Of a stretch of 64,000 nt of DNA, positions 8-60,447 are shown piece after piece. Position numbers and translations under genes: made by a program. Source of the stretch: Candidatus Hydrogenedentota bacterium (GTDB lineage Bacteria; Hydrogenedentota; Hydrogenedentia; Hydrogenedentales; SLHB01); assembly GCA_045863295.1 (NCBI GenBank), contig BTWA01000013.1, positions 86,350 through 150,349 of the forward strand. The letters run 5' to 3'. Numbering within the stretch: position 1 is the first letter of the stretch; each line of letters starts with the position of its first letter. Below the pieces are notes generated by a model. That model was not told the origin of the DNA. It made no database searches and saw only the letters and a program-made list of their open reading frames with translations.

Positions 8-928
8 GTGGCCGCGGAAGCGGCGCCGACCGAGGTAAACGTCGGGGATCCCATGACGTTGACCATCAAGGTAAGTGGTATCCCGTATTTTGGCCACATC
101 GACCTTACGGGATTGAACCAGCAGGAACAGCTTATCCGGGACTTCCGAATTCCTGCGGAGATGGCCCCCGCGGAAATGACCCCGGATGCAAAAGTATTTC
201 GTCAAACCATCCGCCCGTTGCGTGCCGGCATTGCCGCGGTCCCTCCCATAAAATTGCCGTATTTCGACAGCAGCGTTGGCGAGTATCGCGTAGCGCAGAG
301 TGAACCGATACCCATAACAGTGTATGAAACCCGCGTTGTCACTACGGCCGATATCGAAGGAGACGCGCCGGTGGCCGCAAATCCCGAACCGGCAAGGGAG
401 CCGACACCCATGGCCGAGGGAATCGCCTACAACTATGAAGGTCCGGAATTGTTGCGCCGTGCGTATTTGCCGCATGAGACGTGGTTGCGAACACCTTTAT
501 GGTGGGGAATTCTAACGTTGCCGCCATTGGTGTTTGCCGCCTTGTTGTCACTGCGCGTGGCCCGTGCGCGAACGCAGCGCGCCAAGGCCGGCGCGGTAAT
601 GTCGCTCAGGGATTTTGAGCAGGCGGCTTTGGCGATGGCAGCAAATTCCGGCGAGCAACAGTTCTATCAATCGGCCATCGCAATTTGGCGAGATTACCTG
701 GGAGGCAAGTTGTCCGCCCCGGCGCGGACTATGACGGCTGCCGATGCACGGCCGCTGCTGCGGCAACGTGGCATCGGGCCGGACGTGATTAGCGAGGTGG
801 AAGCGGTATTCGAGGCTTGCGAAGCCGGCCGATTCGCCGGGGCGGATGTTACCGATGCCAACAAGGAAGCAATCGTCAATCGCATGATCGCAGCGGCGAA
901 GGCCCTCGAACAAGGTAATAAGTCATGA
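8..928 (+). CDS. BatD-family protein, C-terminal part (probably starts upstream of window)
   Basis: Ig-like BatD-type segment (EVNVGDPMTLTIKVSG...LPYFDSSVGEY), one TM helix, then a C-terminal helical domain (CEAGRFAG); lies directly before a BatE-like gene. Confidence 0.7.
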   Translation: MAAEAAPTEVNVGDPMTLTIKVSGIPYFGHIDLTGLNQQEQLIRDFRIPAEMAPAEMTPDAKVFRQTIRPLRAGIAAVPPIKLPYFDSSVGEYRVAQSEPIPITVYETRVVTTADIEGDAPVAANPEPAREPTPMAEGIAYNYEGPELLRRAYLPHETWLRTPLWWGILTLPPLVFAALLSLRVARARTQRAKAGAVMSLRDFEQAALAMAANSGEQQFYQSAIAIWRDYLGGKLSAPARTMTAADARPLLRQRGIGPDVISEVEAVFEACEAGRFAGADVTDANKEAIVNRMIAAAKALEQGNKS

Positions 929-53400: not shown

Positions 53401-56400
53401 ATGGAGTCGCCTACTGCCGGCCTGGATATACCAGATATACAGGACAGCATGCGCCCGGAAGCCAAGCGATACCAACACCGGATCTGGATCGTAACCGGTC
53501 TGGCCATCGCCGGCGCAACCATGCTCACGGTCGCTTTCTCCACTGTACACAATGCCTACGAAAGAGAAGAACAAATGGCAGGTGGATTGGAGTACGCGAA
53601 TTTCCTGCTCGAACTTCAGATCGGACTCGCCGAATCGCTGGCATACGGCCCTTCCGATTCAAAAGCCCCACCGGTTTCTGCCGGCCCCCCGCAATCCATG
53701 GAGGGAAAATCGGCACAAACGACTTCCACCATGCTGGGGCATCTCTATGAATCATCCAACGTCTCGGTGTATCCAATCGCCCTGAATCCAGCAGGACCGC
53801 AACGTCCGTTGGATACGTGGGAAAAGGCCGCCATGCATTCCATCCTGCGCGGCTCGGACGGCGAAAGTGGCATGGACCACACTGTTCCGTCTCCGGTCAT
53901 TCGTGCAATCCGGCCGCTCGTCGCAACAAAAAACTGCCTCCGCTGCCACGAAAACGAAAAGTTCCGCGTAGGCGAAACCGTCGGCGCATTGTCCGCCAAG
54001 GTAAATACCGAGTACATCGCCGCCGCGACCCTCGTGCACGGCAACAAGGCAAGTGTGATTCACTGGCTCATCTGGGCGGCGACCACGCTGTGCGCCTTGC
54101 TGGCCGGTACGGTTCTCGTTCGCATGAACCGCCAGCGTGAATTGTCAGAGCGCCAAAACCAACAAAACAGCGCATATCTCCATGCGATCCTGGAAAGCAT
54201 TCCATATCAGGTCAATGTGCTGGATGCCGAATACCGGTTGCTTTCGAGTAATCGTTCAGCGTTTCCTACGGTACCAGGCCGCCGTATCCGCGAAGGCATG
54301 TCCCATTGCTATGAGATCTTTCACGGGCGGACCGCACCCTGTGAAGGTCCAGACCTCGTCTGCCCGTTGAACGAAGCACTAAAGTCTCGCGCCTGCACAA
54401 CGGCAACCCACGAACACCTCGGTCCGGACGGTGTAATTAGAACCTATGAGATAGATGTCTCGCCCATGGCCAGTGAATCCGGCGACATCGATCGGTTTAT
54501 CGAAATCATTCGAGACGTCACGGATCGCGCGGCCATCGAGCGGCAACTGCGCACGATGGCGCAAGTCATCGAACATGTCCACGACGCCGTCATCTATGTC
54601 ACACCCACCGGCCGCATTTCCGCATGGAACAAGGGTGCAACCGCCCTCTTCGGATTCTTGCCCGGCGAAGTAATCGGCACGTTTGTCTTCAGCCTGTTTC
54701 ACGCCGATTGCCGGCACCGTGTAAAGAAAGCCGCACTGCAGGCAATTCGCCACGGCGATTGGCAAATCGAAGCCAACGTGCTGCACCGATCGGGAAGGGA
54801 AATTCAAGGGTATATGTCGGTTTCATCCATCACCGACAAGATGGGCAAGGTCATCGGCGGTATTGCCATCATACTGGATATCTCAAAATTGCGCGAAGTG
54901 GAACAAAAACTCGCCGAGAGTTCCGATAGATACCAACTCGCCGTGGAAAGCGCCGAATTGGGAACATGGGACTGGGATCTCGTTTCCGGAAACGCAAAGG
55001 TCAATGCCCGCTATGCGGCCATGCTCGGCTATGAACACGAACGGTTTGAACACTCGTTCGACCGGTTCAAAAACATGGCGCATCCCGATGACCTGCCCCA
55101 TGTCCTCGAAGGCATCGAAGTAAACATGCTCGCCGGAGACAGTATCAGCGAAGACGAAGTCCGGCTGCGCCACAAAGACGGGCATTGGATCTGGTTCCTG
55201 AATCGCGGACGTGTGGTGGAGCGCGATCGGACCGGACGCCCCCTGCGCGCGTGCGGCATCATGCAGGATATCTCCGAAAAGAAAAACTTCGAAGCAGAAC
55301 TGAAGAACAGCATCGAATTGCTCACCGCCATACGTGCGTCCCACGAAGCAGCCTTCTCGACCCATGCCGAGGGTATCCCATACAACCGCGTACTGGCATC
55401 CATACTCAAAGTATCGGACAGCGCGTTCGGATTCGTCGGAAAGGTCGCATGGGACGGCGATACTCCAAAGTGGCTGGAGATGCTCGCGATCGACAGCGCC
55501 CAATGGGATAAAGACGCAAAAACCCACTATCAGACTGCCGCGGTTTCCGGCGATCTGCGACTGGACATGAATACCCACCCACTAATTGAACCGCTTCTCG
55601 CGGGAAAACCCACGCTCTCCAATACCCCCAACGCACCGGATCGCCGCACAAACGGAACCGGTGCCTTCGCGGGATTCCGGAACTTTCTCGCGGTCCCCAT
55701 ACAACAGGACGGGAAAACGGTGTTGCTTTTCGGGCTGGCAAACCGCCCCACGCCATTTACCTACGAGATCGCGCAACGCCTCATGCCGCTCTTAGAAACC
55801 CTTACCCAGGTTACCATGGCAGCCAGCATCGACGCCGAACGCAAACGCCACCGAGAACAACTCGAGCGCATTGTAACCGCCATCGAAGACGGGACGTGGG
55901 AGTGGGATCTGACGTCCGACCAGATCATGTGGAGTGACCGAAGCTTTCACATCCTCGGATACGCATCGCAGGAGTTCGCGCTGGACTACAAAACGTGGAG
56001 CGATCTGATTCATCCCACGGATCGGGATATGTGCATCCAAACACTTCTGCACAGCCTCGAAACCGGCCAACCGTTCAAAATGGAGTTCAGATACAAAACA
56101 AAGGCCGGTTCATGGTGTTGGGTAAACAGCCGCGGACGCATTGTGGAACGCAACGACGCGGGCTGGCCCACTAGAATGGCCGGCGCGCACACAGACATAT
56201 CCGACCGAAAGCGCTCGGAATGGCGTATCCGCTCGCGCCTCTCCATCAACGACTACGCCCGGAACCACTCGCTCCGCGAACTGATGGTGCGCGTGCTCGA
56301 CGAAGCCGAGGCGCTAACGGAAAGCACCATCGGATTCTGCCACTTTGTGGAACCCGATCAGGAACACGTCTGGCTGCAGGCGTGGAGCACCAATACGACC

Positions 56401-58629
56401 GAAACCATGTGCCACGCCGAAGGCGGCGGAAAACATTATCCCATCAGCTACGCAGGTGTTTGGGCCGACTCCATTCGAGATCGCCGCCCAATGATTCACA
56501 ATGACTATTACGCCTTGCCCAACAGGCGGGGATTGCCTCTGGGGCACGCCGAAGTGACCCGCCAACTCGTCGTTCCCGTCATGCGAGACGATAAAGTTGT
56601 CGCCGTTATGGGCGTGGGCAACAAGCCAACTCCCTATACCGATCAAGACCTTGCCGATACCGTTGCCCTCGCGGACCTTGCATGGGACACCATCCAGGTG
56701 AAACAGGCCGAGCAGGCTCACCGCGAAGCCGAAGCCCTGTACAAAAGCATGTTCTCGCAAAACAACGCGATTATGCTGCTGGTCGACCCGGAAACGGGCG
56801 CCATCGCCGAGGCCAATCCCGCCGCCTGCATGTACTACGGCTATACGTACGATGAAATCGTTGCCATGACAGCAGCGGACATTGACGTCGACTCCTCGGG
56901 CGAACTCGCCAAATTGTTTCAGGCGGTACTCCAACGCAACGCAAATGCCGCCCATTCCATCCGTCGCCATCAAGTCCAGTCAGGCGAAATCAGGGATGTC
57001 GAAGTATTTGCCACCGCGCTCGCCAAGAATGGCCGCGACGTTGTGTTTATGATCATCCACGATATCACCGACCGCCGTCGGGCCGAAGAAGAACGCGCGC
57101 GGCTGGCCATGGCCGTCGAACAGGCCACCGAAGCCATCGTCATCACCGGCGTCGACGGCTCCATCGAGTACGTCAATCCCGCCTTCGAACGGGTGACCGG
57201 ATATGCCGAAGCGGAAGTCGTCGGTAAAAATCCGCGTGTATTGAAAAGCCACGTGCATCCAAAAGAATTCTACGAGGAAATGTGGTCCGCGATTACCTCT
57301 GGCGAAACGTGGCACGGACAGATTACAAACGTCCGGAAAACAGGCGAATCGTTCACGGAAGATGTGGTGATTTCCCCACTGCGCGACTCCTCTGGCGTCG
57401 TGCGGCATTTCGTCGGAGTGAAGCGCGACATTACGCGTGAGCTGCAGTTGCAGTCGGAGCTAAGGCAATCCCAGCGCCTGGAGTCCGTGGGGCGTCTGGC
57501 CGGAGGAGTCGCGCACGATTTCAATAACCTCCTGCAAATCATCGGCGGATATACCCAACTCATGCTCGATCAGGGCGGGAGCGCTCACGCCTTTCATGAC
57601 ATGCTGACGGAGGTCAACCGCGCCAGTGGCCGCGCCGCCGAATTGGTCAGCCAATTACTCGCGTTCAGCAGAAAAAGCGTCATGCGCTTTCAGAATCTCG
57701 ACATGAAGCTGCTCGTGCAATCCTGGACCAAAGGACTGGGCCGCGTACTCGGCGAGAATGCACAATTGGTCGTCGAGTGCGATTCGGAGACAAGCGTGGC
57801 GTACGCGGATCGAGGCATGATGGAGCAAGTACTCATGAACCTCTGCGTGAACGCACGCGATGCCATGCCGCGAGGGGGAGTCGTGTCTATATGCACAGGC
57901 TCCATTCGACTCTCCAAAGCATTTGCAAATGACAACCCGTGGGCCAAGGAAGGCCACTTCGCCTACCTGAAAGTAGCCGACACAGGCGAAGGTATGTCAC
58001 GCGGCATAATCGAACACATTTTCGAGCCCTTCTTTACCACCAAAGGCCCAGGAGAAGGCACGGGCCTCGGCTTGGCTACGGTACACGGCATCGTTCAGCA
58101 ACACGGCGGTTTCATTCATGTATCCAGCGAAATCAACCGGGGATCTGTGTTTACCGTCTACGTTCCGGCCGCGCACACCGATATCGCACAAGTGAAACAC
58201 CTCGAACAAAAGCGTATTACCGGAAGAAGTGAGACGATTCTGGTTGCCGAAGACGAGCCCGGCATACGGCAGTTCTCCAAAAAAGTCCTGGAAGCCGCCG
58301 GCTACCATGTTGTCCTTGCGTGCGACGGAATGGAGGCCATGGAACAATTAAGCGCACACAAAGCGGAGATAGCGCTGATTGTGCTGGATGTTATCATGCC
58401 GCACATGAGTGGACGGGAAGTATTTGAAAAAATACAATCTACAAATAACGCCATACCCGTCATATTCGCCACAGGCTACAGCGAGTCCTCGCTTCACTCC
58501 GAAGTAAACCACGGTTCGGAACTGCGCCTCATCCGAAAACCCTTTTCCAAGGAAGACTTGCTGGAAGCCGTCCGCTCCGCGCTCGACGCAACACCCGCAG
58601 ACAATGCGGCGCTCAACTGGGTGCTGTAA
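53401..58629 (+). CDS. Hybrid sensor histidine kinase: periplasmic heme-c domain, multiple PAS, two GAF, HisKA, HATPase, REC
   Basis: TM-CLRCH-TM; PAS motifs (WDWD, HPDD, YVNPAF); [32 protein letters not shown]; receiver EDE...LDVIMP...KPF. Confidence 0.92.
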
Positions 58630-58686: not shown

Positions 58687-59616
58687 ATGCATGTATCATT
58701 TGTTATTCCGGTTTTTAACGAACGCGAAACGTTGCGGCCGCTGTTGGAAGGCATAGCCCAACACATCGCACCCCACAAATTCGATGTCGTATTCGTGGAC
58801 GACGGCAGCACCGATGGCTCCCGCGATTTGCTGCACACGCTCGCGCGCGAACACAGCGCCGTCAAAATTGTGGAACTTCGTGGCAACTTCGGAAAGTCCG
58901 CCGCGCTCGCCGCGGGTTTCGCCAAGGCCGAAGGCGACCTGGTCTTCACCATGGACTCCGACCTGCAGGACGACCCACAGGAAATCCCCCGGTTCCTCCA
59001 AAAGATTGAAGAAGGGTACGACGTCGTCTGCGGATGGAAAAGCGTACGCCATGACCCCTGGCACAAAGTCATCCCATCCCGCGCGTACAATGCCTTTGTC
59101 GCATGGCTCTTTGCGCTGCCCCTGCATGACGTGAACTGTGGTTTCAAAGTCTACCGGCGTGAAGTCGTGAAGACCCTCCGCGTCTACGGAGAATTGCACC
59201 GCCTCATTCCCGTCATGGCCCATGGCATGAACTACCGCGTCGGGGAAATCCCGGTCGAGCATCACCCCAGACGCTATGGAAAATCCAAGTACGGACTCGA
59301 GCGGTTTACACGGGGCGCCCTCGATGTACTGACCATCTGGTTCCTGGACCGGTACAGCCATGCCCCCGGCCACTTCTTCGGGAAAATGGGAATCATCCAA
59401 TCCGCGCTCGGTGCCATCGCATTCGCGATCGCGGCGTTCTTGTGGTTCCGCGCCATGCCTACCTCCGTGATTGCCGCCTTTGGCGTGGTTGGCCTGGTGC
59501 TCTTCGCCACCGGAGGTCTGACCTTTTGCATGGGCCTCCTTGCCGAACTCGTACTCCGCCACTTCGTCCGGATCGATCCGGATCTCTACATTGAAGCCCC
59601 AAAACAATCCGGATGA
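58687..59616 (+). CDS. GT2 glycosyltransferase (ArnC/polyprenol-phosphate type)
   Basis: VIPVFNE, DDGSTDGS, NFGKSAAL, MDSDLQDDP, two C-terminal TM helices. Confidence 0.9.
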   Translation: MHVSFVIPVFNERETLRPLLEGIAQHIAPHKFDVVFVDDGSTDGSRDLLHTLAREHSAVKIVELRGNFGKSAALAAGFAKAEGDLVFTMDSDLQDDPQEIPRFLQKIEEGYDVVCGWKSVRHDPWHKVIPSRAYNAFVAWLFALPLHDVNCGFKVYRREVVKTLRVYGELHRLIPVMAHGMNYRVGEIPVEHHPRRYGKSKYGLERFTRGALDVLTIWFLDRYSHAPGHFFGKMGIIQSALGAIAFAIAAFLWFRAMPTSVIAAFGVVGLVLFATGGLTFCMGLLAELVLRHFVRIDPDLYIEAPKQSG

Positions 59617-59679
59617 AACGGTCCGCAATGTCATGCAGAGCGAGACCGATCCAATCTAGATGTACGGCTAAATGGAGGG

Positions 59680-59710
59680 AGAGCGGCGGGCCTTGGGTAC
59701 CCGCCGCTCT
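59680..59710. terminator. Strong GC hairpin between convergent GT2 gene and ncRNA (possible bidirectional terminator)
   Basis: AGAGCGGCGGG-N9-CCCGCCGCTCT; only weak U-tracts on either strand. Confidence 0.55.
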
Positions 59711-59718
59711 TTGCGGGG

Positions 59719-59913
59719 AGTGTCTGAAACCTTTCTTATCCGTGTTTCTTGGCGCAAGAGGGTCACGGTAGAAGGTGCAATACTGAAACCATTGGGCTGC
59801 GGTCTGTTGGCCTCAGCAGTTGTACGAACCCTTAATGGCCTGGGCTGCGGAACGGACTTCACGGTGCATTGAAGTCTGTGACCAGGTTCGTACTGAGATT
59901 GGTTCCAGACACC
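59719..59913 (-). ncRNA. Candidate structured non-coding RNA of unassigned family (~195 nt)
   Basis: Own promoter; 12-bp closing helix joining 5' and 3' ends; nested helices whose imperfect pairs are G-U only on the minus strand; downstream hairpin; no credible ORF. Confidence 0.72.
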
Positions 59914-59919
59914 GGCTGC

Positions 59920-59948
59920 AATATACCACAACATATAGGGGCTGTCAA
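59920..59948 (-). promoter_or_regulatory. Sigma70 promoter of the ncRNA, with NrdR-box-like site in the spacer
   Basis: TTGACA-N17-TATATT with extended -10 TG; spacer contains CCACAACATATAGGGG (59926-59941). Confidence 0.75.
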
Positions 59949-60228
59949 CCCCTCAAAATCAATGAATCGACTTTTCTTGTGGCTACCTAAACCCCCACAA
60001 AAAGTAGAGCCAAGCACAACTCACACAAAGACTGGCATCCATGCCACAGCATTCTCGCAATTTATGCTTTTTCAGGTTTCTTCTCACCGTTCAACATATA
60101 GTGGTCCAGGTTTCGGCCCGCAACCCACCCTAGAGGCCCGCGATTCCGAAGCCATATTGTCAATTTCCAGTCCGAACGGATACCATTAAGGAGGACGCGT
60201 AAACGTGTTTTGAGGGAGAAAAGGAAAT

Positions 60229-60447
60229 ATGCCGTTATTTCTGTATCATTGTGCTGCGTGTGACGTCGATAGTGAATTGCTCGTACGGAATGGCGAAACA
60301 TTGGCCTGTCCCCAATGCGGTTCGGACCAGCTGCAAAAACAGATGTCCGCTTTTGCTCCCGCGGCAAGTCATCGCGCTCAAGCGCAGCCCATGGGATGCG
60401 GCGCGCAATCCTGCTGCCAGATGCAGGGCGGCTGTGGAATGAACTGA
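60229..60447 (+). CDS. FmdB-family zinc-ribbon protein
   Basis: MPLFLYHCAAC...CPQCGS..LQKQMSAF, Cys-rich tail CGAQSCC...GGC; AAGGA RBS. Confidence 0.82.
   Translation: MPLFLYHCAACDVDSELLVRNGETLACPQCGSDQLQKQMSAFAPAASHRAQAQPMGCGAQSCCQMQGGCGMN

Follow-up and report, generated by a model that had tools for sequence, protein, structure and literature searches.

A single-copy structured RNA gene with an extended −10 promoter, conserved across the phylum Hydrogenedentota and confined to it

What is transcribed from a near-consensus promoter that points towards a convergent gene? This question is raised by a locus at positions 59913–59670 on the minus strand of a 64,000-nucleotide (nt) stretch of DNA, hereafter the window, which was taken from the Candidatus Hydrogenedentota bacterium assembly GCA_045863295.1 (contig BTWA01000013.1, positions 86,350–150,349 of the forward strand) and belongs to a genome (G000) of 6.3 Mb in 88 contigs that is 96% complete. 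The answer is, almost certainly, a stand-alone, single-copy non-coding RNA gene of about 244 nt, the first described member of a family confined to the Hydrogenedentota, with a near-consensus extended −10 promoter and a conserved GC hairpin at its end. A preliminary description of the window, made from the bare sequence, had put forward either an undescribed small RNA or a very divergent 6S RNA. The former is borne out by the lack of an Rfam match, the presence of a single-copy stand-alone gene throughout the phylum, covarying helices, and contigs from RNA libraries that are confined to the RNA.

The promoter had been read on the minus strand as TTGACA, a 17-nt spacer, a TG-extended TATATT, a GCAGCC discriminator and a start at the G in position 59913, and all of these elements were found again. 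The −10 hexamer TATATT lies at 59925–59920 with TG directly before it, the discriminator occupies 59919–59914, and the G that follows at 59913 is the predicted +1. A sigma-70 promoter scan scored the site at 11/12 with the TG extension, and shuffles of the region give 0.5 ± 0.8 promoter-like sites. Among relatives, the spacer is kept along with the hexamers. Both transcript ends used here, 59913 and about 59670, are predictions.

When folded from 59913, the minus strand reaches −95 kcal/mol versus −65.9 ± 4.7 kcal/mol for its shuffles (z = −6.17; none of 200 shuffles was as good), and the corresponding z for the plus strand is −3.95. The fold thus favours the minus strand, as do five G-U pairs that become A-C mismatches on the plus strand, an asymmetry that the preliminary description had noted as agreeing with the direction of the promoter. 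The closing stem that it had proposed between the 5′ end and a segment some 180 nt later is present as a 13-bp helix (P1, Table 1), and four of its five inner helices are present as well, namely GUACGAACC/GGUUCGUAC, UGGUC/GGCCA, GACUUCA/UGAAGUC and CCGUG..UCUUG-CGC-CAAGA..CACGG. The fifth, CUCAG/CUGAG, was dropped because its CUGAG is used by the hairpin CUGAGGC/GUUUCAG (P3), which covaries in 7 of 7 pairs. The GC hairpin expected after the RNA was also recovered, with 10 bp at 59709–59681 rather than 11. Because this hairpin, its loop included, is conserved as part of the RNA, the conserved unit comprises about 244 nt (59913–59670), and the earlier size of about 195 nt had to be given up.

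Support for these helices came from the comparison of relatives. In a MAFFT alignment of 30 homologs (A1), with the structure written from the window's sequence, 90.6% of cells are paired and 36 of the 61 pairs show two-sided changes; shuffled controls give 15.1 ± 2.5 such pairs (none of 500 reaches 36), and controls in which the partners were slid by 1–3 columns give 16–20. A larger alignment (A3) was made from 102 covariance-model matches, 96 of them full-length and 6 antisense hairpin-only matches that were retained, with 101 distinct rows. Here 92.4% of cells pair and two-sided changes are found in 51 of the 61 pairs, compared with 30.8 ± 2.6 in shuffles and 25–33 in the slid controls, values that count for less in our favour since the 101-sequence alignment was fitted to the model and is biased toward its structure; the MAFFT result is the independent one.

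At the level of single helices, two-sided changes in A3 affect 9 of 9 pairs in P2a, 3 of 5 in P2b and 7 of 7 in P2c. P3, with its fully covarying stem, preserves its loop motif in all families. In the 3′ hairpin, 8 of 10 pairs show two-sided changes, 99.1% of cells are paired, and the loop word CCCAAG occurs in 77 of the 96 homologs. P4 is almost invariant, so its covariation is weakly informative, and 8 of 30 sequences break one of its inner pairs. When all column pairs were scanned, the strongest covariation fell only in the nested helices, with no stacked extra pairs outside them, and there is therefore no evidence of conserved loops pairing intramolecularly; a pseudoknot between the loops of P3 and P4 via CGCA/UGCG, noticed by eye, was discarded for want of stacked covarying pairs in the same scan. 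Overall, the comparison shows a predicted fold in which a 13-bp closing stem, joining the 5′ end to the segment before the 3′ hairpin, and the arms P2, P3 and P4 form a four-way junction.

The arms vary from family to family. Families f1 and f3 have a long P2 made up of three parts, in the others it is a short hairpin, and the short P2 hairpins of family f11 retain CAGCCC in the loop. Most families keep P4; some members of f11 and a few further genomes have it replaced. By eye and uncounted, the base of P3 is extended in many relatives by a further helix of 5 bp, which is absent from the window's copy. CAGCCC occurs at least once in 93 of the 96 homologs and at least twice in 53 of them. The universal parts are P1, at least one CAGCCC hairpin loop, the CCCCGCA linker, the covarying 3′ hairpin with its CCCAAG loop, and the C/U-rich tail.

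How widely is the gene distributed? Of 61 related genomes, 47 gave BLASTN matches to a 281-nt query, many of them full-length at 70–81% identity. On its own genome, the covariance model R1 gave a single strong match (238 bits) and two weak ones (21 and 16 bits). The better of the weak matches, at G000:C1:174424–174530 on the plus strand (21.2 bits, E = 0.0125), is probably due to chance. R1 found one copy in 115 of the 133 genomes of the order, in 12 of its 13 families, and thus in 115 of the 135 genomes of the phylum, the 2 genomes of other orders having no match. Laxer filters, applied to 5 negative genomes, brought in the thirteenth family (G042, 54.5 bits) and a weak match in G043 (26 bits), and G060, G133 and G134 gave no match even then. 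In other families the RNA is 160–190 nt long, and the copies of family f11 are the most divergent.

Beyond these genomes, a pattern scan of one genome per species, 185,579 species in all, returned 40 loci. According to their titles, 31 belong to Candidatus Hydrogenedentota, Hydrogenedentes or Hydrogenedentales, and the other 9 are labelled "uncultured Nitrospiraceae" (six), FCB group, uncultured bacterium and Roseovarius (one each). Eight of these nine are full-length members at 191–233 bits. The Roseovarius locus has no covariance-model match and was set aside as a chance match. The records originate from sludge, bioreactor, groundwater and sediment samples.

The RNA corresponds to no known family. 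With the 4227 models of Rfam 15 at their gathering thresholds, the whole 64-kb window gave no match, and at E values up to 10 over 801 nt only two chance matches appeared, on the plus strand of the hairpin, with 16.7 bits (cut-off 46) and 13.5 bits (cut-off 55). The hallmarks of transfer-messenger RNA (tmRNA), RNase P RNA and signal recognition particle (SRP) RNA had been reported as lacking, and indeed none of these models matches at the locus; each family was found elsewhere in the genome, RNase P RNA on C14 (320.2 bits), small SRP RNA on C2 (60.7 bits) and tmRNA on C19 (183.2 bits). A likeness of the loop word to SRP helix 8 came down to a 6-nt overlap with the genome's own SRP RNA and was rejected. 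Several of the checks proposed together with the preliminary description gave results in its favour: there is no match to any Rfam 15 family, relatives keep the RNA across the phylum with helices that covary beyond shuffles, and the search for another 6S locus led to a canonical 6S RNA on C28. A literature search brought up no paper on an RNA of this phylum. To our knowledge, Hydrogenedentota are known only from metagenome-assembled genomes, and we know of no RNA biology described for them.

RNA libraries provide a hint of expression. They hold a fraction of 0.32–0.47 of the words sampled from a 401-nt stretch, and the better DNA runs hold 0.53–1.00. All four RNA libraries that were compared with the locus contig by contig, from four studies, contain one contig each of 155–182 nt that is 100% identical to the locus and lies within 59715–59896, and the same libraries hold nothing on the flanks 59300–59714 and 59897–60300 of the 1001-nt stretch searched. 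For the transcript that the preliminary description had told its readers to look for, the contigs confined to the body of the RNA in 4 of 4 libraries are a hint.

Table 1. Features of the RNA gene and its promoter in window coordinates.
Feature	Positions	Strand	Evidence and remarks
Whole RNA, predicted +1 G to U-containing tail	59670–59913	minus	Covariance model R1, 238.2 bits, C13:146019–146262
P1, 5′ strand (closing stem)	59901–59913	minus	Pairs with 59719–59731; 11 of 13 pairs with two-sided changes in A3
P1, 3′ strand	59719–59731	minus	Fold and covariation
P2 arm	59822–59893	minus	P2a 59893–59885/59830–59822; P2b 59884–59880/59840–59836; P2c 59876–59870/59861–59855
First CCGCAGCCCA motif, unpaired, in P2 internal loop	59841–59850	minus	Nearly invariant in A1
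P3 hairpin	59783–59816	minus	59816–59810 with 59789–59783; loop with second CCGCAGCCCA (59802–59793)
P4 hairpin CCGUG..UCUUG-CGC-CAAGA..CACGG, near-invariant CUCUUGCGCC apex	59740–59768	minus	Alignment
Linker CCCCGCA-AA, unpaired	59710–59718	minus	Invariant block in A1; CCCCGCA in 83 of 96 homologs
3′ GC hairpin, 10 bp, conserved loop UACCCAAGG, presumed terminator	59681–59709	minus	Covariation
C/U-rich 3′ tail UCCCUCCAUUU	59670–59680	minus	Relatives mostly CCCUCCUUUU
−35 hexamer TTGACA	59943–59948	minus	Invariant in 30 of 30 aligned relatives
17-nt spacer with conserved CTATATGTTGTGG and extended −10 (TG-G-TATATT)	59920–59942	minus	Promoter scan; relatives

A 7-bp inverted repeat, AGGGG..CCCCT, surrounds the −35 hexamer in the window (59937–59953, minus strand) and is not conserved in relatives.

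The promoter has a twin in the genome. The exact pattern TTGACA-N5-WATATNTTGTGNTA occurs twice in the 6.3 Mb, at this RNA and upstream of fliQ, where it lies at G000:C5:150187–150211 (plus strand; L134 2001–2025), about 110 nt before a fliQ gene of 89 amino acids (PF01313, 98.4 bits) that is followed by fliR- and flhB-sized open reading frames. The same motif stands upstream of a fliQ homolog, within about 70–100 nt of its start, in 11 of 12 secondary short BLAST matches (L176–L186), which represent 11 other genomes from at least 4 families. In other strong promoters of the genome the resemblance stops at the hexamers and the TGTG-N-TA part. The spacer thus has the look of an operator that serves both the RNA and fliQ, which suggests that one regulator may act on the two.

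The presence of the RNA does not depend on fliQ. Among the 135 genomes, fliQ (PF01313) occurs in 97; both genes are found in 83, the RNA without fliQ in 32, fliQ without the RNA in 14 and neither in 6, a tally that was partly inferred from family totals, as 18 fliQ-less genomes are unlisted, and that shows no association. Of the 23 genomes of family f11, 2 have fliQ and 19 have the RNA with the same spacer, so a purely flagellar role can be set aside. Family f11 may be non-flagellated; in neither of its fliQ-positive genomes (G060 and G077) did the RNA give a match. We also rejected the notion that genomes without fliQ go on to lose the P4 word, since outside f11 the 7-mer is found in 58 of the 63 fliQ-positive genomes and in 11 of the 14 that have no fliQ; inside f11 the 7-mer also occurs in the P3 stem, which confounds the count. 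The fliQ mRNA likewise gained no support as a target: in windowed duplex prediction on the fliQ leaders of 11 genomes, none of the 11 beat the best of 15 shuffles, and unrestricted prediction on these leaders yielded meaningless long duplexes.

What, then, might the RNA do? Our preference, a tentative one held at rather less than even confidence, is a trans-acting antisense regulator whose C-rich loops would pair with G-rich sites in mRNAs. According to this model, the RNA would act without Hfq or ProQ, and the task of its helices would be to present C-rich words that are invariant and unpaired. P2 and the P3 loop both carry CAGCCCA(A)GG, the P4 apex carries CUCUUGCGCC, the linker and the tail contain CCCCGCA and CCCUCC, respectively, and CCCAAG lies in the loop of the 3′ hairpin. 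These words would pair with G-rich sites, for example ribosome-binding regions, of several mRNAs and alter their translation or stability, in the manner of the small RNAs with C-rich loops of Firmicutes, and through the shared promoter spacer one regulator would control both the RNA and fliQ. Several conserved unpaired C-rich words are indeed located in loops across the families. Neither Hfq nor ProQ was found in the genome, at its 96% completeness, and CsrA is encoded (C46, 91.7 bits). Arms are gained, shortened or swapped between families, which is easier to reconcile with modular binding sites than with one core for catalysis or ligand binding.

Several points weigh against this interpretation of the locus. 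No mRNA target was found among the fliQ leaders or among genome-wide near-perfect complements, and such complements of the six conserved segments occur in the genome in about the numbers expected by chance. The combination of 10-nt words that are invariant across the phylum with a covarying junction is unusual for antisense small RNAs and would suit a protein partner equally, and the word CAGCCCA is not the complement of a Shine-Dalgarno sequence. As for the limits of the transcript, the tail UCCCUCCAUUU contains too few U for the 3′ hairpin to be listed by the terminator scan, and the library contigs end at 59715–59722, before this hairpin; contig ends cannot be read as transcript ends and may lie where sequence common to related strains begins. 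DNA carry-over into the libraries is made unlikely solely by the empty flanks.

One complement stands apart as an observation of its own. At G000:C11:110642–110658 (plus strand), 16 of 17 positions are complementary to the P3 loop region, apparently within a coding region; about 0.04 complements of this quality are expected per segment, and six segments were tried.

An alternative that we hold to be nearly as probable is that the RNA is a protein-binding scaffold or sponge, in which the CAGCCCA(A)GG and CCCAAG loops would be sites for an RNA-binding protein, possibly an oligomer, that the RNA would titrate or assemble, as CsrB does for CsrA or 6S RNA for RNA polymerase. The repetition of one loop word in two or three copies (CAGCCC at least twice in 53 of 96 homologs) points this way, as does its retention in the short P2 loops of f11. 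The conserved loop of the terminator-like hairpin (77 of 96) is not needed for termination alone, fold and words are preserved phylum-wide as in housekeeping ribonucleoproteins, and no mRNA target was found. On the other hand, the neighbourhood offers no candidate protein (pntAB at 7–8 loci, an ankyrin-repeat gene at 5, none recurrent in f1), the GGA motif of CsrA differs from this word and occurs just 2 times in the RNA, no more than 3 of the 135 genomes have Ro/TROVE, and for a sponge two or three sites would be a small number. In a bolder form, which we consider unlikely, Hydrogenedentota alone would possess a ribonucleoprotein or global regulator built around this RNA, with a protein reading the CAGCCCA(A)GG and CCCAAG loops and the spacer operator tying the RNA into a fliQ-fliR-flhB export-gate regulon. 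If this were true, it would be a new class of regulatory RNA ranking with 6S or CsrB, with a different partner and a different logic.

It is improbable that the RNA is a compact ligand-sensing or catalytic RNA, such as an orphan riboswitch-like small RNA or a ribozyme, whose loops would form a tertiary core. The four-way junction and the many invariant nucleotides would agree with this, and, judged by eye, the CCCCGC linker might alternatively pair with the 5′ arm of the 3′ hairpin. However, no co-oriented gene lies downstream to be controlled, arms are lost or replaced between families, the column-pair scan found no covarying tertiary pairs, and all conserved unpaired words are C-rich, while the RNA itself offers them no G-rich segment to pair with.

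A second, very divergent 6S RNA that binds the RNA polymerase holoenzyme, the other proposal of the preliminary description, is very improbable. Size, a strong promoter and likely abundance would speak for it, and some bacteria do have two 6S genes. However, the 6S model has no match at E values up to 10 in 59400–60200, and its sole match in the genome is the canonical gene at C28:74379–74561 (53.1 bits, cut-off 46.4); covariation supports a four-way junction and not a rod with a central bubble. The separate 6S gene and the junction fold together therefore lead us to reject it.

A Y RNA, the partner of the Ro/Rsr protein, is less probable again. The 5′ and 3′ segments do pair into a long stem and the genome does encode a TROVE protein, but TROVE occurs in 3 of 135 genomes compared with 115 of 135 for the RNA, a YrlA-like candidate (32.3 bits, cut-off 69, E = 6e-4) adjoins the TROVE gene itself, and no YrlA or Y RNA model matches at the present locus. 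The rarity of TROVE and the candidate beside its gene therefore exclude this identity. The TROVE (Ro/Rsr) gene itself, in a frame of 533 amino acids, lies near the YrlA-like RNA and a tRNA (stretch L190, G000:C20:72010–73020, with features at 536–672, minus strand, and 144–227, plus strand) and, given its presence in 3 of 135 genomes, may have been acquired.

The weakest alternative, with a negligible probability, is a small protein gene or a protein gene's 5′ leader: an open reading frame of 88 amino acids (59668–59934, minus strand) does span the element, but its ATG lies within the promoter spacer, it has no Pfam match, it is not preserved in relatives (the longest sense frame in 30 homologs varies from 27 to 89 amino acids with shifting frames and starts and reaches 88 in 3 of 30), substitutions track base pairing, and the downstream gene is convergent.

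The surroundings of the gene agree with its independence. That the RNA is no leader of a protein gene had been stated at the outset from the convergent next gene, and this holds beyond the window, as neighbours and their orientations differ over 36 loci, across which no conserved co-oriented downstream gene was found. In the window, the next gene (58687–59616, plus strand) is a family-2 glycosyltransferase (E = 6.6e-32) convergent with the RNA, and on the upstream side follow a divergent unknown open reading frame and a family-9 glycosyltransferase. A very long open reading frame of 1742 amino acids (53401–58629, plus strand) stops just before the family-2 glycosyltransferase gene.

Among relatives, synteny is loose and limited to families outside f1, which has no recurrent neighbour. 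The genes pntAA-pntAB-pntB lie divergently upstream in 7–8 of the 36 loci and an ankyrin-repeat gene lies convergently downstream in 5, the Pfam scan having covered representative neighbours. The transhydrogenase operon pntAA-pntAB-pntB adjoins the RNA upstream in L116, L117, L122 and L125–L127, and also in L133 and L063, and this neighbourhood may be ancestral. A guide RNA of a mobile element (omega or bridge RNA, retron RNA) was discarded, as the gene is single-copy and the representative neighbours scanned against Pfam are ordinary genes, among them those for glycosyltransferases, pntAB and an ankyrin-repeat protein.

After rRNA, tRNA, RNase P RNA, SRP RNA, tmRNA and 6S RNA, this gene is among the most conserved non-coding genes of its phylum (13 of 13 families of the order). 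As it stands, it could be put forward as a candidate Rfam family, it is a compact marker of the phylum, and it opens a way to study post-transcriptional control in a lineage that yielded neither Hfq nor ProQ. Its regulation can be put to the test through the exact copy of the promoter at fliQ.

Comparison with known systems places the RNA as follows. With 6S RNA (RF00013) it shares the size range, a strong housekeeping-type promoter and the single copy, but it has neither the rod-and-bubble fold nor a model match, and the genome's 6S gene is elsewhere. Like the CsrB/RsmZ sponges it repeats a loop word on a multi-hairpin RNA in a genome that encodes CsrA; unlike them, its word has no GGA, the two GGA in its 244 nt both lie outside hairpin loops, and the word is present in two or three copies. 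The long stem of 5′ and 3′ segments with branching modules recalls the bacterial Y RNA/YrlA (RF02553), from which the RNA is set apart by the presence of Ro in only 3 of 135 genomes, by a separate YrlA-like candidate beside rsr and by the absence of a model match.

Antisense small RNAs with C-rich motifs are known from Firmicutes, for example RsaE/RoxS and the hairpin loops of RNAIII. The present RNA resembles them in its several unpaired C-rich loop words, in a host without detected Hfq and in its unusually wide conservation, whereas it is 2–3 times longer, has a junction fold and no homology to them, carries a main word (CAGCCCA) that is not anti-Shine-Dalgarno, and has no target that was found among the fliQ leaders and the near-perfect genome complements.

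Nearest in kind are the lineage-specific orphan structured RNAs of Rfam, such as Bacteroidales-1, Chlorobi-1, Acido-1 and the raiA motif, which are likewise finds of comparative genomics with their own promoter and terminator, a single lineage and a covarying fold. The RNA described here differs from them in matching no Rfam 15 model and in having its own closing stem, three arms, repeated CAGCCCA loops and a conserved 3′ hairpin loop. Taken together, the family is new, yet of a familiar general kind, namely that of lineage-specific, independently transcribed, structured small RNAs.

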